Shown one piece after another: positions 15,681 through 44,427 of a DNA stretch of 44,427 bases. This stretch comes from Xenococcaceae cyanobacterium (GTDB taxonomy: Bacteria; Cyanobacteriota; Cyanobacteriia; Cyanobacteriales; JBFRWF01), in NCBI GenBank assembly GCA_051439465.1, contig JBFRWF010000102.1:1-44427 (forward strand). Reading direction: 5' to 3'. Position 1 is the first letter of the stretch, and every line of letters begins with the position of its first letter. A model generated the notes under the pieces. It did not search any database. It worked only from the letters and a program-made list of their open reading frames with translations, and was not told the DNA's origin. A program made the translations under genes and the position numbers.

Positions 15681-15709
15681 TCAGGCAACAGGCAACAGGC
15701 AACAGGCAA
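15681..15709. repeat. Heptamer tandem repeat (GGCAACA)x4
   Basis: ggcaacaggcaacaggcaacaggcaacag read directly. Confidence 0.8.
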
Positions 15710-15721
15710 CAGTAAAGCATT

Positions 15722-15918
15722 GAGGCTGTTTACATTTCTTAACTCAGGTGACAAAATTTATATCCGACTACTTAGCGATCGCAAACTTGAATGTCAGTAG
15801 CTGGACATAAATTCTGTTAACTGTGTTAAGAACTGTGAAGACACTGAATCCCCTTCTGTTCCCTGATCCGAAGTTCCCTTGTCTCAATAGTTAACTTTAA
15901 TTTTGTCCTACTACTTAG
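15722..15918. repeat. MITE-family composite repeat (second copy of the 4080-4222 modules, rearranged, plus a TIR-like module)
   Basis: gaggctgtttacatttcttaactcaggtgacaaaatttatatccgactacttag is near-identical to 4170-4222. agtagctggacataaatt...tgttaactgtgttaag matches the internal part of the 33986-34116 element. The 15-mer module at 15850-15880 is inverted relative to 4082-4113. Confidence 0.65.
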
Positions 15919-17633: not shown

Positions 17634-18869
17634 ATGGCAACGATTAACGATAACTACCTCAAGCTCAAAGCGGGTTACCTGTTTCCCGAAATTGCCCGAC
17701 GGGTCAATGCTTTCGCACAGGCCAATCCAGATGCCAAAATTATCAAGCTGGGCATCGGCGATGTCACGGAACCGCTGCCGGAAGCCTGCCGCACAGCTAT
17801 GATCAAAGCAATCGAAGAAATGGGCGATCGCGCCACCTTCAGAGGCTATGGTCCAGAGCAAGGCTATGGCTGGTTGCGGGAGAAAATTGCGGCTCACGAC
17901 TTCCAAGGACGGGGATGCGAGATTGAGCCTAGTGAAATCTTCGTCTCCGACGGTTCTAAGTGCGACACGGGCAACATTCTCGACATTTTTGGCAAGAACA
18001 ACATCATTGCTGTCACCGACCCTGTCTATCCCGTATATGTGGATACCAACGTCATGGCAGGTCATACTGGACCGGCTAACGATGCAGGGGAGTATGAGGG
18101 ATTGGTGTATCTACCCATCACAGCACAGAACAACTTTACTGCGGAGATTCCCTCCCAGAAAGTCGATCTGATTTACCTTTGCTTCCCCAATAACCCCACT
18201 GGAGCAACCGCAAGCAAAGCCCATCTCCAGGCTTGGGTGGACTATGCCAGAGCTAACGGCTCCATCATTTTCTTCGATGCGGCCTACGAAACCTTCATCA
18301 CCGATCCGGAGATTCCCCACTCCATCTATGAGATTGAAGGGGCGCGGGATTGCGCGATCGAGTTTCGCTCATTCTCCAAGAATGCCGGCTTTACCGGAAC
18401 CCGCTGTGCGTTGACGGTGGTGCCCAAAACGCTGACGGCCAAAGCATCTGATGGTTCAGATGTGGAACTGTGGAAGTTGTGGAATCGCCGTCAGTCAACC
18501 AAGTTCAATGGGGTGTCCTACATCGTTCAACGCGGAGCAGAGGCGGTCTATTCGGAGGAAGGACAGGCGCAAGTTAAGGCTCTGGTCAGTTTCTATCTGG
18601 AAAACGCCAAGATCATTGGCGAGAAACTGACGGCAGCCGGATTAGGGGTTTATGGGGGTGTAAATGCACCTTACGTCTGGGTGAAAACGCCCAATGGTCT
18701 GTCGAGTTGGGATTTCTTTGATAAATTGCTGCATAAGGCGAATGTCGTCGGCACGCCCGGTTCTGGGTTTGGTGCTGCAGGGGAAGGCTACTTCCGCATT
18801 TCGGCCTTCAATAGTCGGGAGAATGTGGAGAAGGCCATGCAGCGGATTATGGAGAAGTTTAAGTTCTAG
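17634..18869 (+). CDS. dapL: LL-diaminopimelate aminotransferase (DapL; lysine biosynthesis)
   Basis: [27 protein letters not shown]...[12 protein letters not shown]...[20 protein letters not shown]. Strong match to the DapL (AGD2-like) class I aminotransferase family, 411 aa. Confidence 0.92.
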
Positions 18870-19002
18870 GGCGAACTTCAAAAGTTAGGGAACTCTTAAC
18901 AGGCAACGGAGAACAGTGAAGGGGAGGAGATTAATTAAATGATTTGTTCGCTTAGTAAATCTCTCCCTTTCTCCCTGCTCAGAAGCTCCCCTGCTCAATA
19001 TC

Positions 19003-19089
19003 TGTTCCCCGTTCCCTGTTCCCTGTTCCCTGTTCCCTGTTCCCTACTTCCCTCAAAAAAGGGGTAGTTAACCCAGATTTGGTATGACT
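19003..19089. repeat. ~88-bp dispersed element, copy 1: (GTTCCCT)n heptamer array + ccctcaaaaaaggggtagttaacccagatttggtatgact. On the minus strand it reads as a hairpin + T-run (terminator-like) directly after the S1 gene stop
   Basis: Near-identical to 30075-30162. The last two bases of the element contribute to the TAG stop of the S1-domain gene. The minus-strand reading gggttaactacccctttttt resembles an intrinsic terminator. Confidence 0.75.
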
Positions 19090-19990
19090 ATTCAGAAAGC
19101 TTCTCTTTTGCTTTCTGGACACGTTCGGAAGCGGTTGCCATCACCTCATCCATTTTCTCCAATATCTCTCCTGGATAATTTTCCAAAACCTTGGTAGATA
19201 GAGAAAGGCGATTTTTGTACTCGTCGATGTCAACAATCATCACCTTAATCTGCTGTCCGATTTGAAACAGGGTCGTTAGAGAATCCACATGGGAGCCACT
19301 CACCTGTTTGATGTGCAGTAAACCTGTGACCCCATCCAAATCGACAAACACACCGTAAGGCTTAATACTGACCACCTTACCTTCCATGAGCTGCTCTCTT
19401 TCCAATTTGCTAATGGCAGCGGCGCGAGCAGCTTCTCGCTGGGATAATACCAGTTTGTTGCGCTCAGGATCGACTTCCAAAAAGTTGGCAGTCAGCAATT
19501 GACCAATTAGAGATTCGAGGTCCTCTTTCTCAATCAAGTGCGATCGCGGAATAAAAGCTCGCAACCCCTCTACTTCTCCGATGACTCCTCCTTTATTCGT
19601 AGCTGTCACCCGCATTTGTACTGATTTGCCGCTTTCGGCACTCTCAGTCAGATTATCCCAAGCCTGCTTGATTTCTAGCTGACGCCGTGACAGAGTTACC
19701 TGACCTTCTGCATTCTGTCCGCTAATAATCAGAAAGTCCATCTCTTCTTGTAGCGGCAAAAACTCAGATAAATCTGTCACCCGTTTCAAAGAAGCCTCTC
19801 TGAGGGGAACAAAACCGGGGGACTTACCGCCGATGTCGATATAGGCTCCCTCTGAATCGTATTGAAATACTTTGCCGCGCACTACCTGTCCTTTTTCAAA
19901 CTGGTAGTCATATTGTTCGAGGGCTTGGGCAAAATCATCCATAGAAAAGGGCTGATTATGCTCTTGGGAAGAGGTTGATTCTGAAGTCAT
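19088..19990 (-). CDS. 30S ribosomal protein S1 homolog / S1 RNA-binding-domain protein (cyanobacterial short Rps1-type paralog)
   Basis: Three S1-like OB-fold segments are present (GQVVRGKVFQYDSEGAYIDIGGKSPGFVP; GKSVQMRVTATNKGGVIGEVEGLRAFIPRSHL; GKVVSIKPYGVFVDLDGVTGLLHIKQVS). 300 aa. Confidence 0.8.
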   Translation of the reverse strand: MTSESTSSQEHNQPFSMDDFAQALEQYDYQFEKGQVVRGKVFQYDSEGAYIDIGGKSPGFVPLREASLKRVTDLSEFLPLQEEMDFLIISGQNAEGQVTLSRRQLEIKQAWDNLTESAESGKSVQMRVTATNKGGVIGEVEGLRAFIPRSHLIEKEDLESLIGQLLTANFLEVDPERNKLVLSQREAARAAAISKLEREQLMEGKVVSIKPYGVFVDLDGVTGLLHIKQVSGSHVDSLTTLFQIGQQIKVMIVDIDEYKNRLSLSTKVLENYPGEILEKMDEVMATASERVQKAKEKLSE

Positions 19991-29433: not shown

Positions 29434-31422
29434 TCAATTGCAGTGATATAGTCTATAACTGTAACCATTGACCTTAAGTCGACTTCGGGAGTCTTTCTGA
29501 CAATTGTATGTTTCCGGGTTAATAGTTGGGTGGAAATTGATTGTCCATAAATCTAGAGGTCGCTTTTGTTGAGCGAGAGTGTTGTAGAGGACTGCTGTAG
29601 CGCTTTGAGAGTCATTGTCCTTTTCATGAGCTAAAAGAAACTGTGGGGGACTGAAAGTTAAATCTGTAGTTGGTGAGGGTTCAAGATGTTTAAATTCCCA
29701 CGCTATAACCATTAAGGCTCTTGTTTCCGCATGAGTTTGATGCTCAGTGGCGATTAAAACTGGAGCATCAGACATAGATTGAATCTGGGAAACTAGGAGA
29801 TCGGGGCGTCTCGATTTTTGGTAGCCCAGATTGGAGACTACTGTTAATGCACCGATTAAACCCATGAGCAAAACTGCTCCCACTACCTTTTTCCCTCTAG
29901 CTTTGAGAGAATTAGGTTTCTTGAAGATTTTAGCAAAATTTATCTTTTCTGACTTTTGATTTTTGACTTTGAGCGTTCCCGAAGGGTGGCGAAGCCTAGG
30001 GAATGATACGAAATCCTGGTCTAAAACCCCCTTTATCAATTTGTTGTCTTTTTCTTCCCCTGCTCCCCCCTCTCCGTTCCCCGTTCCCTGTTCCCTGTTC
30101 CCTGTTCCCTGTTCCCTACTACCCTCAAAAAAGGGGTAGTTAACCCGGATTTGGTATGACTCTTCCCAGCAGCTAGCAAGAGCTGCCCCCAATAACACGA
30201 TGAGGGCAGGAAAATAAACGAAATGATATCGAGCAGCGAGGGTCAAATCAATGCCAAGACCATAGGTAAAGACCAAGAAAACAGCGATCGCTGCCAATAC
30301 AAACCCACCTAAAACCTGAGTGATTAAACGAGTTGATGGAAAATTCATCCTTGTTCTTATGCCACAAATGAAAGCAGGGCAAACCCAGATTAGAAACAGG
30401 AGCAGGATTAGAGCAGAAGCTATGATAACTGGCAAATTTTGTCCTTCCACAGGCAGCATAAACAGCATGGTAATTACCCAAACCAAGAGTCGAGCAATGG
30501 GTTCGAGCAATTCTTTAAAGTCTAGATCGTGTTGAATCCATTGAATCAGATTATAGTTAGGGATAGCTGAGGTGACGGGTAACCAGACTAAGCCTGCCAT
30601 CAGAGTTCCCACAGCTACTATGTAAATCCGTCGCCAATGTTGGCTGTTGAGTAGGGGGATGGTAAAGACTGTTTTCTTTGTTCCCTTGGGTTGAGCAAGT
30701 ATCCTACATCTAAAATCCCAAAGCCAGAATCCTGCTATAACTAGCCCCTCGCTACATAGGATGAGGAAAAAAAGGTAATGGGACGCAATTCCTAAACTGT
30801 TTACCCCGATCCAAGTCAATCCTACCCAAATTGGGAAGGAAGTCTGCTTCCAGATATATCTAGTGGCGATCGCTAAGCAAGCTAGGGAAGCAATGCTCCA
30901 TAATACTGCTAGGGTGTAATGGCGAGCTTCTTGAGCCAGATAGATGCCGTAGGGCGAAACCGCCATCAGAGCTGCTGCTATTTGACCGACTAATCGAGAG
31001 CGGAAGGCAAGGTAGCCCAAGGAAAATATGGCTGGAATCGATGCTATACCGAAAATGGCACTGAGCGATCGCCCTGTCCACAGTAAATCCAGTTCCCCAT
31101 TGATGGAAAATAGCTTCATCCAGAGATGTGTTAGCACAAAGTAGGTAGGTGGATGAGTATCCTCATTAATCAAGTAGTGGGTAACATCGTGGATATTTGC
31201 GGTAGAGTTGAATTGCAAGGGCTGTAAGAGACTTTCTAGGGGGAGTGCTCGATCTAGTGGCACTTCTAGCAAACTATTGCCCAAGCTAAAGACTAGAGTA
31301 GCCAGTTCACTAGTTGAGGGAGTTTTATCTGCCAAGTTAGTGAAGCGTAGAAGCACACCGACTGATAACCATATAAGCAGTAGCAGGGGATGTACCCAAA
31401 AACCTAAAGACAAATTGTTCAA
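29434..31422 (-). CDS. Polytopic membrane glycosyltransferase, GT39/ArnT-PMT-like (family 39/83 type), with an in-frame repeat insertion and a C-terminal soluble extension
   Basis: N-terminal ~410 aa have many TM helices and the typical early loop (DKTPSTSELATLVFSLGNSLLEVPLD...THPPTYFVLTHLW). The (GTTCCCT)n dispersed element at 30075-30162 is translated in-frame as NREQGTGNREQGTGNGEGGAGEE. Confidence 0.6.
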   Translation of the reverse strand: MNNLSLGFWVHPLLLLIWLSVGVLLRFTNLADKTPSTSELATLVFSLGNSLLEVPLDRALPLESLLQPLQFNSTANIHDVTHYLINEDTHPPTYFVLTHLWMKLFSINGELDLLWTGRSLSAIFGIASIPAIFSLGYLAFRSRLVGQIAAALMAVSPYGIYLAQEARHYTLAVLWSIASLACLAIATRYIWKQTSFPIWVGLTWIGVNSLGIASHYLFFLILCSEGLVIAGFWLWDFRCRILAQPKGTKKTVFTIPLLNSQHWRRIYIVAVGTLMAGLVWLPVTSAIPNYNLIQWIQHDLDFKELLEPIARLLVWVITMLFMLPVEGQNLPVIIASALILLLFLIWVCPAFICGIRTRMNFPSTRLITQVLGGFVLAAIAVFLVFTYGLGIDLTLAARYHFVYFPALIVLLGAALASCWEESYQIRVNYPFFEGSREQGTGNREQGTGNGEGGAGEEKDNKLIKGVLDQDFVSFPRLRHPSGTLKVKNQKSEKINFAKIFKKPNSLKARGKKVVGAVLLMGLIGALTVVSNLGYQKSRRPDLLVSQIQSMSDAPVLIATEHQTHAETRALMVIAWEFKHLEPSPTTDLTFSPPQFLLAHEKDNDSQSATAVLYNTLAQQKRPLDLWTINFHPTINPETYNCQKDSRSRLKVNGYSYRLYHCN
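30075..30162. repeat. ~88-bp dispersed element, copy 2 (heptamer array + ccctcaaaaaaggggtagttaacccggatttggtatgact), located inside the GT39-like CDS
   Basis: Near-identical to 19003-19089 (2-3 mismatches outside the heptamer array). Same orientation. Confidence 0.8.
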
Positions 31423-33737: not shown

Positions 33738-33793
33738 CCAAAACTCAGCCACCATTTAATTTAGGCATGGTTCAAAACAGAGTAACACGCTTA

Positions 33794-33860
33794 GAGGGGG
33801 AGAGAGGGAGAGGGGGAGAGGGGGAGAGGGGGAGATGGGGAGATGGGGAGATGGGGAGAC
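33794..33860. repeat. Heptamer/octamer STRR array (GGGGAGA/GGGGAGAT)n
   Basis: gggggagagggggagagggggagatggggagatggggagatggggagac read directly. Confidence 0.85.
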
Positions 33861-33985: not shown

Positions 33986-34116
33986 ATAAGTAGTCGGACA
34001 TAAATTTTGATGACTGTGTTAACTTTTATAAAATGATCAAAACCCTATTGCGAAGCAAGAGACATCGGTTTTTACATTTCTTAATACAGTACTGTTGACT
34101 TATGTCTGACTACTTA
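33986..34116. mobile_element. MITE-like non-autonomous element (~131 bp) with 16-17-bp terminal inverted repeats (taagtagtcggacataa / ttatgtctgactactta)
   Basis: The TIRs are a 16/17 match. Internal sequence shares gactgtgttaac and tttacatttcttaa modules with the repeats at 4170-4222 and 15722-15840. No coding capacity. Confidence 0.65.
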
Positions 34117-34220
34117 GTATAATCAACTGGAGTAGTGGGGATAGTCTGTGCTACCACTGGCGGTGGCGACAGTCCATCAAACCAACAGCGAATTTTTCAA
34201 ATACAGGCAAATAATTAACA

Positions 34221-34262
34221 GTGACCAGTAACCGGTAACTGGTAACTGGTCACTGGTAACTA
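34221..34262. repeat. Heptamer STRR array (GGTAACT/GGTCACT)n
   Basis: ccagtaaccggtaactggtaactggtcactggtaac. The same heptamer family is expanded in-frame inside the downstream Rep gene. Confidence 0.8.
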
Positions 34263-34898: not shown

Positions 34899-37800
34899 AT
34901 GAAAAATTTCAGTAGTCCAGAACAAAAGTTAGAACAGCAGCGCTCAACCTCAAGTCATAAGTCACCACAAGAGCGTGTAGATGAATGGATTTCTGGTAGC
35001 GCGGTAAGTCCAGAACTGACCGAAAAATGGCTAGAGCAGCAGTCCGACAAAAAGGAGATCGCCCGCCTGCTAGCCTGGAAATATTACAGTCACACTCCTG
35101 GCTGGTACGTGCGCTCTTGCGATCCACACACGGGAATGCGTGGGGATTTTGGACAATTCAAGCCAGACTCACCGCTTCAATTCCCCGACTCTGACAAGCC
35201 CTGTAAATACTTCACTTTCCCCAAAGGCAGGGGGACAGAGGCAATCTACAGCGTGATGACGCTTAACGAGTGGATCTCAATCAGCGAGCGGGTTGGGGTA
35301 GACATAGAAACCAAGGACATTGATGAATCCCGCGATGATTTAGGTTTCTGGCGTTGGGTAATGAATCACCCTGAGATTCCCATAATCATTACTGAGGGAG
35401 TTAAGAAACAGGGTTGTCTGCTAACTTGGGGGTGGGTGGCGATCGCCCTTACCGGAGTATGGAACGGACAGCAAAAGCGCAAACTGCACCCGTCCCTTAA
35501 ACCTTTCATTGTGCCTGGACGCGTAGTTTATGCTTGCTTTGATGCCGATGTGGTAGTCAAGGTCGAGGTAGAACGCGCCCTCAAGGTTTTTGGGCAGGTC
35601 GTCCGGCGCGAAGGTGCCTCAGTTTTTATTATTAACTGGAATTTAGAACTGGGCAAGGGCTGCGATGACTTGATTGTCAATGAAGGCTATAATTCATTTG
35701 AAGAGGCTCTCCATAATGCCACCCCTTATAGTGAATGGCTCAAGTCTCTCAAAACTGAACAGCCCAAGAAAAAAGGCTCACTGGTAGCTGCTGATGTTAT
35801 TGGTGGCAGCGGCGGTGGTAATAACAACGGTAATGGTGGTGGTGGGAACAATGGCGGTGATGGCTCTGGTGGCGATCGCTCCCGAGAGAACAACGAGAAA
35901 AAGAATCCAGAATGGCGCTATAAAAATGTTGCCGACGCACTAGAACTGCCTTTTTCTGATTGCGTTACTGCTGGAAGCTTCGATGGGTATGTCTACCGAG
36001 AAATATTTGGGGCCGGAACTGAAAATTGGGCAGCGATCGACACTGCCTTTTACCACAACACAGAGCAGGGCTACTGGCAGCATCAGGAAGATAAATTCAT
36101 TCACAAACTGATCTGCGATGCCTCCCAAAAGGCTTACAAGCTCAAATCCTCGAAATTAGAGGGCTGGTGGGCTACCTACCCCTACGAAACAAACAGCTCG
36201 TCCGAGTCTGCCTTTAAGTTTGTTCGCAAGCGCTTGGAGTTAGATAACTTACCGTCCAATGTACATTTGAGGGCATTCAATAATTGTACCGTGGATATGA
36301 GGACGGGTCAAACCATGCTCCACGACCCCGCCCATTTCCTAACTAGCCAGGTTCCTTACGATTACTACCCTAACCGTCCATGTCCTGAGAATTTCTACAA
36401 CTTTATTTGTAGTTCCTTCGGGGAAGATTTACTCTGTGTCATCCGGGCGTTTACCTCAATGTTTCTAGATCCGACGGCTCCCTATGGGCGATTTCCTCAT
36501 CTGTTTGGGCCATCAGGTTCAGGTAAGGGAGTGATGGGGCGATTGTGGAGTTCTATGTATGGAACCGTAGGCTCGGCTTCCCTGGCCAGTTTCGAGGAGC
36601 TGGCATCTGCAGAAGGACGGCATCAGTACCTCACTGGGAAATCTATCTGCGGCATTCCCGATGTCGGCGGTTATGTCAAGGGACTACGCGCTTTCTACGA
36701 GCTTATAGACAATGGTGAGATGTCGGGCCGGGCACTGTTTAACCCTACTGGCTATCAGAAGCTTTGGAATATGCGTTTCTGGGTGGCTTCTGTTGACCAC
36801 CTGCAAATTGAGAACGCCGGGGATGGTTGGGCTCGCCGCGCATACCCCATTCCTACTAAGGGCAAGCCAGATAATGTTGACCCCAACTTGAGGGTGAAGT
36901 TAGAAGCAGAGATAGGAGACATTATTTCATGGGCTTTGGCTATGCCCAGAGAAGAGCGCGATCGCATTCTTTTGGGTGAGCCCACCAACTCTCGAGTCAT
37001 CAATGCCATCACTGATGCCGCTCTCTACGGTGACAGTACTAAGAGCTTTGTCGATCTGTGCCTGCGCCCTTCTGACAATCCTGGCAATGTTCCCAATCAC
37101 ATGCTGCACTCCTGGTATGTCGCCTACTGCGACAAGCACGGCTATACACCGATGGGGATGTCCAAGTTCATCTCCCACCTCAAAACCATCCTGCCGAAAA
37201 ACCATGTCCAGCGCGGTTGGTCGCCAATGACTAATGGCAAGCGCTCACAGGTTTCGGCTCACTGGGAATATATTGTATCTCTTCGGGGGGCTCTTGTAAC
37301 TATAAACAATGGTGCTGACAACGGCTATCAGGGTTCAGCTAATCAAGAGCCCGAGTGGAAGTGCATGAAATCTAAATGTGTGGAAGGAGGGTTATTTGAG
37401 TTTGAGGATTTTTGGAATCCACCAGAACCACCTGGGCCACCTCAACCACCTCAGCCACCTCAGCCACCTGAACCTGATGATGGTGGTCCCGGCGGTGGTG
37501 GTCCTGATAATAACCCTCCGACTGCCGATCCTGCTCCAGATTCGGATTCAAAATCGCCAGAACCACCTAGCAGTAAGGGTGTGCAGGGTGTACATGCTGT
37601 ACAGGGCAGCTCAGAAAATCCCGAATCGCTGAAACAACGCAGTGGTGCGGGTGTGCAGGGTGTGCAGGGTGGATCGCACAGAGATCCGGACTTTGAAAAA
37701 ATATCAGTAGCTGTTGTAGAAAAAAATGAGGTGGCGCAAACAGTAGAAAGGGTAGAAAGCCCCCTGTCCACCCCTGTACAGTTACCAGTTACCAGTTATC

Positions 37801-38948
37801 AGTTGCCAGTTGGCAGTAATCAGTTAGCAGTTGACAGTAATCAGTTAGCAGTTGAAAAGTCAGATAACGAACCTTCTTCAGTTACCAGTTACCAGTTACC
37901 AGTTACCAGTGAGACTCCCGACTCTGACGGAGTTCCGAATTCAGAGAAGGTAGATTCAACTGTGTCCCACGGTGACAAGACTTCAGATAACCAACCTTCT
38001 TCAGTTACCAGTGACCAGTTATCAGTGACCAGTGAGACTCCCGACTCTGACGGAGTTGCTCATTCAGAGTTGGTAGACCCCACTAAAAACCAGGTAACTG
38101 GTAACTGTTCACTGGTAACTGAAGAGGTAACTGGTAACTGTTCACTGGTCACTGAAAAGGTAACTGGTAACTGTTCACTGGTCACTGAAAAAGAGCTGGT
38201 AACTGATTACTCCACTTATCCGCATCTAACCAGCAATGATGTCCGAGCTTGTCGAAACCGGGCTAGTCGGTGCAAAAATCAGATGCTTGCCTGTACTAAC
38301 CGAGATGAGCTGGCAGAATTTCGAGCTAGTGCTGGATTCTCTCAGAGTGAGATTGATTGGGTTTGGGAAAGGCTAACTGACAGTGAAAAGTTTGGCGTAC
38401 ATAAAGCGGTTAAGCAAGAGCAGCTAACTTTACCGGGTTTTGAGAAATCTGAAAATGGTAACTGGGAACAGGTCACTGAAGAGGTAACGGGTAACTGGGA
38501 ACTGGTAACTGAAACTGAGCAAACTGCTCCGGTGTCAGAGTCAACTGAAAATGCCTCAACTGACCCAGAACAGATTGAAAGTACCGACGAGATATTCTCA
38601 TGGAACGAGGTAATTGAAGATATGAACCAGCACCTGAAGCTACTTTGTTGGAGAAAGGCTGACGGTTCTGCTTATCTCCAGCACAAGTACAACTTGAATT
38701 GCTGCCCTAATTTAAGCGAGTCAGAAATGTCTGAGTTCTATAAATTCCAGACTGAACGCTTGGCGGGATATAAGGTAGGCGACCGCGCGATTGTTGAGAA
38801 TTATGACCCAAAACTAAATGGTCGGGTAGCAGAGGTGGTATCAGTCGAACCTGGCAACATCATTAAAGTTCAGTTTGATCACAACCGCCGAAAGATGCAC
38901 ATAGAAATTGCACTTTACGTAACACTCTTCTACGGAAAAACTCAATGA
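34899..38948 (+). CDS. Plasmid-type replication protein: N-terminal TOPRIM-like (DUF3854) domain plus P4-family primase C-terminal NTPase domain (cyanobacterial CyRepA-like), with a ~400-aa STRR-derived low-complexity insert
   Basis: TOPRIM-like acidic motifs IIITEGVKKQGCLLTWGWVAIALTGVWNG and VVYACFDADVV. Walker A FGPSGSGKGVMGRLW in a P4-primase-like C-terminal domain. Low-complexity blocks follow (GGSGGGNNNGNGGGGNNGGDGSGG; PPEPPGPPQPPQPPQPPEP; VTSYQLPVTSYQLPV; VTGNCSLVTEEVTGNCSLVTEK) before a conserved C-terminal ~120 aa. RBS GGAGAGGAGAG. Confidence 0.75.
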   Translation: MKNFSSPEQKLEQQRSTSSHKSPQERVDEWISGSAVSPELTEKWLEQQSDKKEIARLLAWKYYSHTPGWYVRSCDPHTGMRGDFGQFKPDSPLQFPDSDKPCKYFTFPKGRGTEAIYSVMTLNEWISISERVGVDIETKDIDESRDDLGFWRWVMNHPEIPIIITEGVKKQGCLLTWGWVAIALTGVWNGQQKRKLHPSLKPFIVPGRVVYACFDADVVVKVEVERALKVFGQVVRREGASVFIINWNLELGKGCDDLIVNEGYNSFEEALHNATPYSEWLKSLKTEQPKKKGSLVAADVIGGSGGGNNNGNGGGGNNGGDGSGGDRSRENNEKKNPEWRYKNVADALELPFSDCVTAGSFDGYVYREIFGAGTENWAAIDTAFYHNTEQGYWQHQEDKFIHKLICDASQKAYKLKSSKLEGWWATYPYETNSSSESAFKFVRKRLELDNLPSNVHLRAFNNCTVDMRTGQTMLHDPAHFLTSQVPYDYYPNRPCPENFYNFICSSFGEDLLCVIRAFTSMFLDPTAPYGRFPHLFGPSGSGKGVMGRLWSSMYGTVGSASLASFEELASAEGRHQYLTGKSICGIPDVGGYVKGLRAFYELIDNGEMSGRALFNPTGYQKLWNMRFWVASVDHLQIENAGDGWARRAYPIPTKGKPDNVDPNLRVKLEAEIGDIISWALAMPREERDRILLGEPTNSRVINAITDAALYGDSTKSFVDLCLRPSDNPGNVPNHMLHSWYVAYCDKHGYTPMGMSKFISHLKTILPKNHVQRGWSPMTNGKRSQVSAHWEYIVSLRGALVTINNGADNGYQGSANQEPEWKCMKSKCVEGGLFEFEDFWNPPEPPGPPQPPQPPQPPEPDDGGPGGGGPDNNPPTADPAPDSDSKSPEPPSSKGVQGVHAVQGSSENPESLKQRSGAGVQGVQGGSHRDPDFEKISVAVVEKNEVAQTVERVESPLSTPVQLPVTSYQLPVGSNQLAVDSNQLAVEKSDNEPSSVTSYQLPVTSETPDSDGVPNSEKVDSTVSHGDKTSDNQPSSVTSDQLSVTSETPDSDGVAHSELVDPTKNQVTGNCSLVTEEVTGNCSLVTEKVTGNCSLVTEKELVTDYSTYPHLTSNDVRACRNRASRCKNQMLACTNRDELAEFRASAGFSQSEIDWVWERLTDSEKFGVHKAVKQEQLTLPGFEKSENGNWEQVTEEVTGNWELVTETEQTAPVSESTENASTDPEQIESTDEIFSWNEVIEDMNQHLKLLCWRKADGSAYLQHKYNLNCCPNLSESEMSEFYKFQTERLAGYKVGDRAIVENYDPKLNGRVAEVVSVEPGNIIKVQFDHNRRKMHIEIALYVTLFYGKTQ

Positions 38949-44367: not shown

Positions 44368-44419
44368 GCGATCGCGCTTCTCCTATCCCAGGGCGATCGC
44401 GCTTCTCCTATCTCAGGGC
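44368..44419. repeat. Tandem 26-bp direct repeat x2, each containing a HIP1 octamer (gcgatcgcgcttctcctatc[c/t]caggg)
   Basis: Read directly at the window end. Confidence 0.8.
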
Positions 44420-44427
44420 GGTCTCGG

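Follow-up and report, generated by a model that had tools for sequence, protein, structure and literature searches.

To our knowledge, the origin and function of STRR-type repeats have been open questions since about 1990. In heterocystous cyanobacteria, STRR heptamer repeats and G-rich heptamer arrays form tandem runs that lie mainly between genes and differ in unit number (PMC4692102). Several small mobile elements have also been described from cyanobacteria. The Nezha MITE, described from Anabaena variabilis and Nostoc PCC 7120 by Zhou et al. (2008) and summarised in PMC3184786, is ~130-170 bp in length, carries terminal inverted repeats (TIRs) and flanking direct repeats, and is represented by filled and empty sites between relatives, being presumed to move in trans by means of an IS transposase; ORF fusions with Anabaena MITEs have been described too (Wolk et al. 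2010, cited in the same source). Small, inverted-repeat-bounded MITEs are scattered in Anabaena sp. 90 and PCC 7120, with a minority situated in ORFs, and 15 intragenic copies create pseudogenes in Anabaena 90 (PMC3542288). REP/RAYT-type repeats consist of a 20-40-bp palindrome with an unpaired GTAG tag, and possess neither TIRs nor a target duplication (PMC3733652).

The window, by which we mean the whole 44,427-nt stretch of DNA analysed here, was found to contain a 93-nt repeat at 19001-19093 (copy 1) and 30073-30165 (copy 2), the two copies being 96% identical and in the same orientation according to both repeat finding and pairwise alignment, with differences at 4 of the 93 positions. The repeat is present only twice within the window, and a 40-nt non-heptamer core gave the same two matches even when three mismatches were allowed, where shuffled sequences were expected to give 0.00; chance is excluded as the source of the two matching copies. 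Common to both is an array of one GTTCCCC followed by five GTTCCCT units (TRF 19002-19045 and 30076-30117), and both lie on the sense strand of minus-strand ORFs, namely an S1-domain gene (19088-19990) and a 662-aa ORF (29434-31422). An earlier note on this DNA had reported near-identical elements at 19003-19089 and 30075-30162, in the same orientation relative to minus-strand genes, and on both points it was borne out. The repeat itself is real, but the ~88 bp that had been delimited turned out to be part of a larger element, which spans 30007-30156 in copy 2. A second, inverted end of the element, at 30007-30038, had been overlooked in that note.

We consider it probable (approximately 0.85) that the repeated sequence is a non-autonomous DNA transposon (MITE), of which copy 2 was inserted in frame and copy 1 has decayed, and that neither copy is a terminator. 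The features of copy 2 and of its host gene are as follows, the boundaries of the element having been drawn from comparison with other family members.

29434..31422, minus strand: host gene, encoding a 662-aa GT-C-fold membrane glycosyltransferase (homologues, AF2 model, Foldseek).
30007..30156, no strand assigned: complete MITE copy (copy 2), 150 bp, TACG… to …GGTA, inside the glycosyltransferase ORF.
30004..30006, no strand assigned: target-site duplication TGA on the distal side, with an identical TGA after the other end.
30157..30159, no strand assigned: target-site duplication TGA on the proximal side, corresponding to a TCA codon (Ser) in the gene sense.
30123..30156, no strand assigned: proximal terminal inverted repeat, CAAAAAAGGGGTAGTTAACCCGGATTTGGTA (nhmmer E = 7e-11).
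30007..30038, no strand assigned: distal terminal inverted repeat, TACGAAATCCTGGTCTAAAACCCCCTTTATCA (nhmmer E = 7.5e-6; ungapped family-end alignment).
30076..30117, no strand assigned: heptamer array (GTTCCCT)6 (TRF period 7, 6.0 copies, 97% matches).
29955..30003, no strand assigned: second segment missing from the gene of the closest relative (L001), ~54 bp or 18 codons, with borders uncertain by ~4 nt.

The distal TIR matches the reverse complement of the proximal TIR at 22 of 32 positions, including 12 of the first 14. Read in the gene sense, copy 2 begins with its GGGGTAGTTAACCC-type end, and its array becomes (AGGGAAC)n, which encodes REQGTGNREQGTGN and is of the G3N4 type, with a G-quadruplex predicted in the sense RNA. 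Together with the duplication the element measures 153 bp, or 51 codons, and it is translated in frame as …FFEGSREQGTGNREQGTGNGEGGAGEE…; only one of its six frames is free of stop codons, and it is precisely this frame that the ORF uses. The element-derived peptide is rich in Gly, Glu and Gln (SYQIRVNYPFFEGSREQGTGNREQGTGNGEGGAGEEKDNKLIKGVLDQDFV), and peptides predicted to derive from the insertion include YQIRVNYPFFEGSR and EQGTGNR.

Searches with the exact 19-20-nt core of the proximal end retrieved 14 genome loci, along with 15 true family loci among 17 metagenome matches. These loci were all cyanobacterial where named, and their flanks revealed a second, inverted end; family copies were present in >20 loci of other cyanobacteria, including Stenomitos, Microcoleus, Allocoleopsis and Coleofasciculaceae, as well as soil and mat metagenomes. 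The TIRs of the family are imperfect and ~30 nt in length (TACCAAATCC…/…GGATTTGGTA), with TACCAAATCC-N7-YAMCCCCYTTTT at both ends, and in 16 copies the left ends could be aligned with the reverse complements of the right ends over ~30 nt without gaps. An nhmmer search with a profile of these ends returned three significant ends in the window, at 30123-30156, 19051-19084 and 30007-30038. The target-site duplication is a 3-bp TNA. Of 20 independent loci, 17 show it in perfect form and 19 have an identical variable middle base, where chance would give 1 in 4 per locus. Family members are ~110-270 bp in length (111-273 bp for complete copies), and most have 0-1 stop-free frames out of six, with no coding capacity of their own. 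Three features of a MITE, namely small size without coding capacity, TIRs and a duplication of fixed length, were found.

The tandem array inside the element varies in length across the family and is usually composed of heptamers (GTTCCCT, CCTTCTG), with a 78-bp unit in one subfamily. We take GTTCCCT and CCTTCTG to differ from the classical STRR1-3 units, and arrays of CCTTCTG also occur in Nostocales plasmids without the family ends. Exact 19-20-mers were counted two to three times in each of four MAGs, six times in one soil metagenome and twice in the 44-kb contig; the low copy number obtained by this exact-word search (1-3 per genome) counts against a MITE. Only one of 18 examined family loci, that of copy 2, is intragenic, and an ORF-span test for in-frame insertion was negative at all 17 others. 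When the end-encoded peptides were searched against 5.8 billion proteins, two word-sharing candidates were obtained, none of them at E ≤ 10. A full-text literature search yielded no 12-mers of the element ends, and its 10-mer matches were to unrelated primers and barcodes.

The gene of the closest relative (L001, from ERR3274948; 89% nucleotide identity) lacks a 207-nt block (69 codons) exactly at the insertion. Of these 207 nt, 153 are accounted for by the element and its duplication, and ~54 more are adjacent, a size obtained by subtracting the 153 nt from the alignment gap; L001 is hence not a clean empty site, and may, improbable though this is, have undergone an excision or a deletion. 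The additional segment contains three TGACTTT units (TRF 29950-29970) and a hairpin, CGTTCCCGAAGGGTGGCGAAGCCTAGGGAATG, and encodes FPRLRHPSGTLKVKNQK; no second copy of it exists within the window. In none of 18 aligned homologues was there homologous sequence at this site.

The host protein has >2000 homologues of ~600 aa that span its N- and C-terminal parts alike, the close ones bearing the NCBI name ‘glycosyltransferase family 39 protein’. Its AF2 model (pTM 0.70) displays the GT-C layout of a multi-TM N-terminal core followed by a soluble C-terminal domain, and the top 19 Foldseek matches were all GT-C enzymes, the best being ArnT (5ezm; E = 5.6e-5, TM 0.39-0.50), followed by ALG12, DPY19, AftA, AglB and PMT. 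No Pfam match was found even at E ≤ 10, nor an NCBIfam match, with PMT_2 (PF13231) and PF02366 included, though one homologue, P0106, has PF13231, and many are called ‘family 39’ by NCBI. Since the modelled fold matches whilst no family model does, the host is best described as a predicted GT-C fold, with the GT39 assignment taken from source annotation.

The insertion falls within residues 423-507, which are modelled with pLDDT < 50 and no secondary structure, between the second-to-last (404-427) and last (511-529) predicted TM helices; the basic composition of this linker suggests a cytoplasmic location. Other homologues have short linkers of variable length, and another cyanobacterium carries an in-frame TCCCCAG array in the equivalent linker. 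Downstream of the insertion dN/dS was 0.27, against 0.47 upstream, and the C-terminal domain retains every invariant residue; the downstream domain remains under purifying selection. The suggestion that an element had entered a loop-coding region without destroying the frame withstood comparison with the gene of the closest relative, which lacks the insertion, being upheld by the L001 gap, the TIRs, the TGA/TGA duplication, the pLDDT < 50 and the dN/dS of 0.27, and the homologous linker that might have contradicted it was absent from all 18 homologues. The accompanying statement that repeat-encoded residues bridge the N-terminal TM core and the C-terminal soluble region is correct as to the reading frame, but one more TM helix stands between the insertion and the soluble domain.

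Copy 1 is situated between a convergent aminotransferase-like ORF, which ends at 18869, and the S1 gene.

18941..19084, no strand assigned: copy 1, a one-ended remnant of the MITE seen as copy 2 (gapped local alignment to copy 2).
19085..19087, no strand assigned: TGA right after the copy-1 TIR (sequence; ORF end coordinate).
19088..19990, minus strand: S1 RNA-binding-domain gene, 300 aa (Pfam S1, E = 2.3e-36).

It retains the proximal TIR (19051-19084) and the array (19002-19045), together with internal sequence that has diverged, and a distal TIR was not found, nhmmer having detected one end only (E = 5.4e-10). The element end (GGTA) lies at 19084 and is followed by the TGA at 19085-19087, presumably half of a target-site duplication, and then by the S1 stop codon TAG at 19088-19090. 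Copy 1 therefore adjoins the TAG, as had been claimed, but its last bases do not form it, the codon being outside the element. Use of the element as the 3' end of the gene is likewise not supported, as the C-terminus of the S1 protein is native and of normal length, aligning with homologues of 296-311 aa. No empty site for copy 1 was recovered among the closest S1 homologues, because these share only 79-84% protein identity and have a different gene order.

Under the MITE interpretation, one copy would have been inserted, in the lineage of the Xenococcaceae MAG, at a TCA codon within the hypervariable, disordered linker of the GT-C protein. The element would have taken the single orientation and frame of six without a stop codon, and because it landed there the gene would read through it and gain a peptide, an insertion that was probably tolerated rather than functional. 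Copy 1 would represent a decayed copy with one end left, in the gap between convergent genes just 3' of the S1 stop codon. Mobilisation would presumably be carried out in trans by a DDE transposase. Three-bp TNA/TWA duplications are typical of IS5-family subgroups and of PIF/Harbinger-Tourist elements (ISfinder classes), and the TNA duplication, considered alone, suggests an IS5-group or PIF/Harbinger-like enzyme. Among the collected family loci, no pair of ends 0.7-3 kb apart was present that could mark an autonomous element. In the search for a partner IS, BLAST of the consensus element against PLSDB plasmids matched only the (CCTTCTG)n part in Nostocales and unrelated enterobacterial repeats, and the 63 matches of a left-end scan of viral contigs were all attributable to chance. 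Neither an autonomous element with these ends nor a transposase gene thus turned up in the loci, plasmids and viral contigs searched, which counts against the MITE interpretation.

The other explanation put forward in the earlier note was that of an intrinsic terminator or 3'-end element, whereby a hairpin and T-run would end transcription just beyond the S1 gene and cut the glycosyltransferase transcript short. A small hairpin, CUACCCC/GAGGGUAG, does occur on the sense strand of both copies, and copy 1 immediately follows a stop codon in the gap between two convergent genes. However, the six-base T-run, described as the tail following a GC hairpin, is in fact the loop (CUACCCC-UUUUUU-GAGGGUAG), and the stem is followed by AGGGAACAGGG with no U tract, which is not the arrangement of a rho-independent terminator (a G+C-rich stem-loop and then a U tract). 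A consensus scan of both strands found 0 terminator-like sites in 18700-19400 and likewise none at 30000-30170, fold energies were no better than those of shuffles (z of +0.2 to +0.5), and an Rfam scan of the whole window at gathering thresholds gave no matches. Truncation of the glycosyltransferase transcript or protein is contradicted by the constraint on the region downstream of copy 2 and by the preservation of all its invariant C-terminal residues, and no terminator-like site was seen there. The terminator was rejected as a candidate, since neither consensus scans nor folding of the core and the whole element as RNA or DNA revealed anything beyond shuffles, and we regard this explanation as very unlikely. 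It is still harder to credit that the long linker is ancestral and that L001 underwent a 207-nt in-frame deletion, in which case nothing would have been inserted into the gene. Such a deletion would account for the 54 nt that L001 lacks beyond the element itself, and linker length varies widely among homologues, with those of P0055 and P0067 as long as that in the window; yet family-type inverted ends and a 3-bp duplication fall exactly at the block borders, sequence homologous to the block is missing from every aligned homologue, and, among 5.8 billion clusters, practically no other predicted protein contains the TIR-encoded peptides.

Two further possibilities concern the array and the relationship between the copies. 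The 7-bp repeat could be a slippage tract acting as a phase-variable frameshift switch, which is compatible with a MITE origin, whereby gain or loss of one or two units removes the last TM helix and the C-terminal domain and a change of three restores the frame. Six near-perfect 7-bp units lie in frame inside the ORF, their length not being a multiple of three, as in a contingency locus, and simulated changes of one or two units gave truncated products (459-477 aa), whilst changes of three gave full-length proteins of 655 or 669 aa. Array length varies among family copies, and the G-rich heptamer arrays of Nostoc range from 2 to 26 units from array to array in one genome (PMC4692102). Against this, a single consensus contig can show no length polymorphism, six units make a short tract, the identical unit count of copy 1 is at odds with rapid slippage, constraint on the downstream domain is not relaxed and all other family members lie outside ORFs. 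We consider such a switch quite unlikely. That the copies are instead related by ectopic recombination, gene conversion or segmental copying, or that copy 1 is a MAG mis-join at the 93-nt repeat, we judge unlikely, if a little less so. The copies share eight of nine flanking bases beyond the inverted repeat (19085-19093 versus 30157-30165), which simple independent transposition does not predict, and have identical arrays; copy 1 lacks the distal end, the distal halves differ by many indels and gene order near the S1 gene is different in relatives. The copy-1 join, moreover, is seen in the MAG contig only, which counts against the MITE interpretation. On the other hand, both ends are present in copy 2, along with a perfect TGA/TGA duplication, the family shows the same plan in many genomes, both shared flanks are native gene sequence retained in relatives, and the differences at 4 of 93 positions show that the copies are not a collapsed repeat.

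If copy 2 is indeed a MITE, it would provide a clean natural case in which a protein has absorbed a bacterial MITE as a disordered loop of 51 residues and kept its downstream domain, and the linker of this glycosyltransferase appears to tolerate large insertions and to gain heptamer repeats repeatedly in different cyanobacteria. Some cyanobacterial heptamer arrays would then travel within a transposon that has defined ends and duplicates a TNA target, and carriage as transposon cargo would give a concrete account of how at least some of the STRR-type repeats came to be dispersed. It is an unlikely, tentative extension that the slippage-prone heptamer tract, with its predicted G-quadruplex, constitutes a reversible on/off switch and that STRR-type arrays have partly spread as such cargo; if true, the element would have placed a switchable tract in the coding region of a cell-envelope glycosyltransferase. 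The family ends (TACCAAATCC…GGATTTGGTA) can be used for annotation, which would avoid mistaking the elements for terminators or for odd low-complexity protein segments.

The Rickettsia palindromic elements (RPE) of Ogata et al. 2000 are reportedly palindromic mobile elements of ~100-150 bp that are found in frame in genes, and are said to add a translated surface or loop peptide to proteins that remain functional, repeatedly and in many genes. The element described here differs in that it is intragenic at one of 18 loci and practically no other protein contains its end peptides; recurrent in-frame insertion of the RPE kind was rejected on the 17 negative loci and the lack of a protein match at E ≤ 10. 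With IS5 and PIF/Harbinger-Tourist elements it has the TNA duplication and TIRs in common, its own ends reading TACC… and the comparison having been made on the duplication. A REP/RAYT-type repeat was also rejected, as GGGGTAG is present but the element is 110-270 bp in length, with TIRs and a TNA duplication. The BrickBuilt MITE of Porphyromonas gingivalis (PMC4596501) shares an interior of tandem repeats in variable copy number, though it belongs to another phylum, has a different sequence and carries a longer minisatellite unit, that of the present element being 7 bp (78 bp in one subfamily). Intragenic copies in Anabaena 90 create pseudogenes, whereas copy 2 is read through and its downstream domain is constrained, the two being likened by description only. 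Nezha is likewise a cyanobacterial MITE of similar size with TIRs and flanking direct repeats, but it resides in Anabaena and Nostoc, whereas the hosts of the present element are Pleurocapsales and non-heterocystous filamentous forms. The representative genomes of Nostocales contained no exact copy of the 20-nt family core, and the ends were absent from Nostoc and Anabaena plasmids; this argues against close identity of the element with Nezha (ISNpu3 ends), from which it is set apart by the core 20-mer and by description only. In comparison with STRR arrays, finally, the array here lies within an element that is bounded by inverted repeats and accompanied by a target duplication.

Repeat searching and pairwise alignment of the window showed that 19001-19093 (copy 1) and 30073-30165 (copy 2) share 96% identity over 93 nt in the same orientation, both on the sense strand of minus-strand ORFs, as an earlier note had described. 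The array common to both comprises GTTCCCC followed by five GTTCCCT units, and the 40-nt non-heptamer core had exactly two matches in the window with up to three mismatches (0.00 expected from shuffles). Comparison of flanks revealed a longer unit: the core forms one of its termini, and an inverted partner lies approximately 80-170 nt away.

A search of one genome per prokaryotic species for the exact word AAAAAAGGGGTAGTTAACCC retrieved 14 loci, every named host of which was cyanobacterial (Stenomitos, Microcoleus, Allocoleopsis, Coleofasciculaceae and uncultured cyanobacteria), and a 19-mer scan of JGI metagenomes retrieved another 17, 15 of them true relatives. The family layout is ATACCAAATCC-N7-TAACCCCCTTTT … array … AAAAAAGGGGTAGTTAACCCGGATTTGGTAT; complete copies span 111-273 bp, and in 16 copies the left ends aligned ungapped with the reverse-complemented right ends over approximately 30 nt. 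The three bases just outside TACC…GGTA are identical on both sides and follow the pattern TNA, this duplication being perfect in 17 of the 20 or so independent insertion loci (the exceptions being L008, L009 and L025), whilst the middle base, which would agree by chance at one locus in four, was identical in 19 of 20. Given the small size, inverted ends and fixed target duplication, the repeat is a MITE, a non-autonomous transposon. TNA target duplications point to transposases of the IS5 group or the PIF/Harbinger type, and a transposase of this kind would, judging from the duplication, act on the family. No partner insertion sequence with the family ends was found in the collected loci, PLSDB plasmids or viral contigs, and neither the representative genomes nor the plasmids of Nostocales contained the core exactly.

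The interior of the family copies is a tandem array, with the unit CCTTCTG in most copies and GTTCCCT in the window. One subfamily (L004, L022; L010/L031; L026) carries instead of heptamers a 78-bp internal unit with a GC hairpin, AAAGCCCGCCTGCGCGGGCTT, and the orthologous loci L004 (195 bp) and L022 (273 bp) differ by exactly one such unit. Arrays of (CCTTCTG)n with the same downstream GCCTTGCCCC(A/C)ACC were also present in Nostocales plasmids without MITE ends, often as inverted array pairs approximately 150 nt apart:

L099, 9-45 and 196-232: (CCTTCTG)n array pair, MITE ends absent
L101, 22-55 and 201-234: (CCTTCTG)n array pair, MITE ends absent

The MITE is therefore one carrier among others of an array module that also occurs on its own.

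Copy 2 is a complete element, both ends of which were detected with a profile of the family ends; the only further significant end in the window was that of copy 1 (19051-19084).

29434-31422, minus strand: host gene, 662 aa, with more than 2000 homologues
30007-30156: copy 2, complete MITE of 150 bp
30123-30156: copy-2 end (E = 7e-11)
30007-30038: copy-2 second end (E = 7.5e-6)
30004-30006 and 30157-30159: target duplication TGA, on both sides of the element

In gene sense the insertion reads …TGG GAA GAG TCA / TACCAAATCC…GGATTTCGTA / TCA TTC CCT…, and together with one duplication it amounts to 153 bp, or 51 codons. Only one of its six frames is stop-free and the host gene uses that one, hence the 662-aa ORF reads through. 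The closest relative of the host gene (P0002, on the Logan-assembly locus L001; 89% nucleotide identity) lacks a 207-nt block exactly at this site, of which 153 nt are the element plus duplication. The other 54 nt (from approximately 29950 or 29955 to 30003; 18 codons), single-copy in the window, include TGACTTT x3 and a small hairpin, CGTTCCCGAAGGGTGGCGAAGCCTAGGGAATG. A further 18 homologues have short linkers of varying length at the insertion site that could not be aligned. In the gene for P0067, a distant homologue from another cyanobacterium (L098 2941-2963, JBFLZA010000077.1), the same linker holds an in-frame, STRR1-like TCCCCAG x3.3 array along with other repeat-derived sequence, so this glycosyltransferase loop collects heptamer repeats repeatedly; at L005, the MITE family is represented in that MAG too.

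The host protein had no match in Pfam or NCBIfam. Its homologues, of approximately 600 aa, extend over the N-terminal as well as the C-terminal part, which makes the host one gene and no fusion. Its AlphaFold model (pTM 0.70) has a multi-helix membrane core, then an unstructured stretch at residues 423-507 (pLDDT <50) that includes the 51 inserted residues, a predicted transmembrane helix (511-529) and an alpha/beta C-terminal domain. The top Foldseek matches in the PDB were all GT-C glycosyltransferases, led by ArnT (E = 5.6e-5) and followed by ALG12, DPY19, AftA, AglB and PMT. Of the two alternatives in the earlier note, an in-frame insertion into a loop-coding region holds, as the comparison with L001 and the unstructured placement of the residues show. 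Relative to L001, dN/dS was 0.47 for the part upstream of the insertion; the downstream part had 0.27, a value indicating that the C-terminal region is still under purifying selection, which fits read-through and not long-standing truncation.

A further function for the array may be considered, namely that heptamer slippage acts as a frameshift switch in the glycosyltransferase gene. With a unit of 7 bp, every unit gained or lost moves the frame by one, and simulated gain or loss of one or two units gave products of 459-477 aa without the last helix and C-terminal domain, three units keeping the frame; however, copy 1 also has six units, and we regard such a switch as improbable. For both copies, ViennaRNA with its G-quadruplex model predicted that the (GGGAACA)n sense RNA folds into a three-layer quadruplex:

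30076-30117, minus-strand RNA: copy 2, -27.2 to -39.9 kcal/mol with the quadruplex model (approximately 13 lower)
19002-19045, minus-strand RNA: copy 1, -25.4 to -32.6 kcal/mol (approximately 7 lower)

G-rich heptamer arrays of the same type occur in Nostoc, where their function is unknown (PMC4692102).

Copy 1, in the 218 bp that separate two convergent genes, is a remnant with one end only; the family profile found no distal end.

19088-19990, minus strand: S1-domain gene (Pfam S1, E = 2.3e-36)
19051-19084: copy-1 end (inverted repeat, profile of family ends)
19085-19087: TGA after the inverted repeat
19088-19090, minus strand: S1 stop codon TAG

It had been proposed that copy 1 serves as the 3' end of the S1 gene, its last bases forming the TAG, but the element ends at 19084. 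The S1 C-terminus (…EKLSE) coincides with the ends of its homologues and a relative retains CTT TCT … TAG, therefore the stop codon is native and copy 1 only abuts it. The terminator-like hairpin followed by TTTTTT also described in the earlier note did not hold, since in the sense RNA (CUACCCC-UUUUUU-GAGGG(U/A)AG) the U run forms the loop and AGGGAACAGGG comes after the stem. For both copies, a terminator scan of the two strands gave no site, the core and the whole element folded with the same minimum free energies as shuffles (z +0.2 to +0.5), and Rfam had no match anywhere in the window; with the U run in the loop, this leads us to reject an intrinsic terminator.

Similarity between the two copies spans 18941-19093 on the copy-1 side, with many gaps needed left of the array; the arrays are identical and the distal halves very different, with many indels. 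Beyond the inverted repeat, the flanks 19085-19093 and 30157-30165, native gene sequence on both sides, agree at eight of nine bases (TGACTATTC and TGACTCTTC). A weak 'AG|TNA' preference on this side (6 of 25 loci) accounts for part only of the agreement. Taken together, these features may point to target preference, an assembly join or gene conversion involving the two copies.

A second dispersed family of approximately 58 nt (TTGAGGCTGTTTACATTTCTTAACTCAGGGGACAAAATTTATGTCCGACTACTTA), intergenic and either single or in facing pairs, was also observed, possibly a further MITE or else a promoter/operator module common to several sites:

4167-4224, + strand: copy, beside a tandem array of AGGGAACTTCGGATC (4087-4131)
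15720-15777, + strand: copy, beside a CAGGCAA array (15682-15712)
34062-34119, + strand: copy, beside a GTAACTG array (34228-34261)
15796-15848: inverted copy
33986-34022: inverted copy

Other repeats lie at 7212-7563, 1322-1377, 33793-33859, 37779-38511 and 44368-44420: a 190-bp tandem duplication (98% identity), octamer arrays (GGGGAGAC x7 and AGAGGGGG x8.4), an approximately 700-bp block with inverted CAGTTAC/GGTAACT heptamer arrays and, at the contig end, a 25-nt x2 repeat.

Among 18 complete family copies, copy 2 is the only one within a long ORF, and peptides from the open frames of both ends, searched against 5.8 billion predicted proteins, yielded two word-sharing candidates, neither with E <= 10. 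The family hence does not make a habit of residing in proteins, and copy 2 has come through selection that acted on both frame and position. Rickettsia palindromic elements, in contrast, are habitually found inside proteins. The family fits the well-documented cyanobacterial MITEs, and is set beside Nezha by description (approximately 130-170 bp with ISNpu3-type ends; PMC3184786). MITE-ORF fusions are reported for PCC 7120 (cited in the same source), 15 of the 147 MITEs of Anabaena sp. 90 interrupt ORFs (PMC3542288), and a Porphyromonas MITE has a minisatellite inside (PMC4596501). Beside these, the mechanism itself is ordinary, whilst copy 2 provides a tidy case of a protein loop that has absorbed a MITE, and ties heptamer arrays to a defined transposon.
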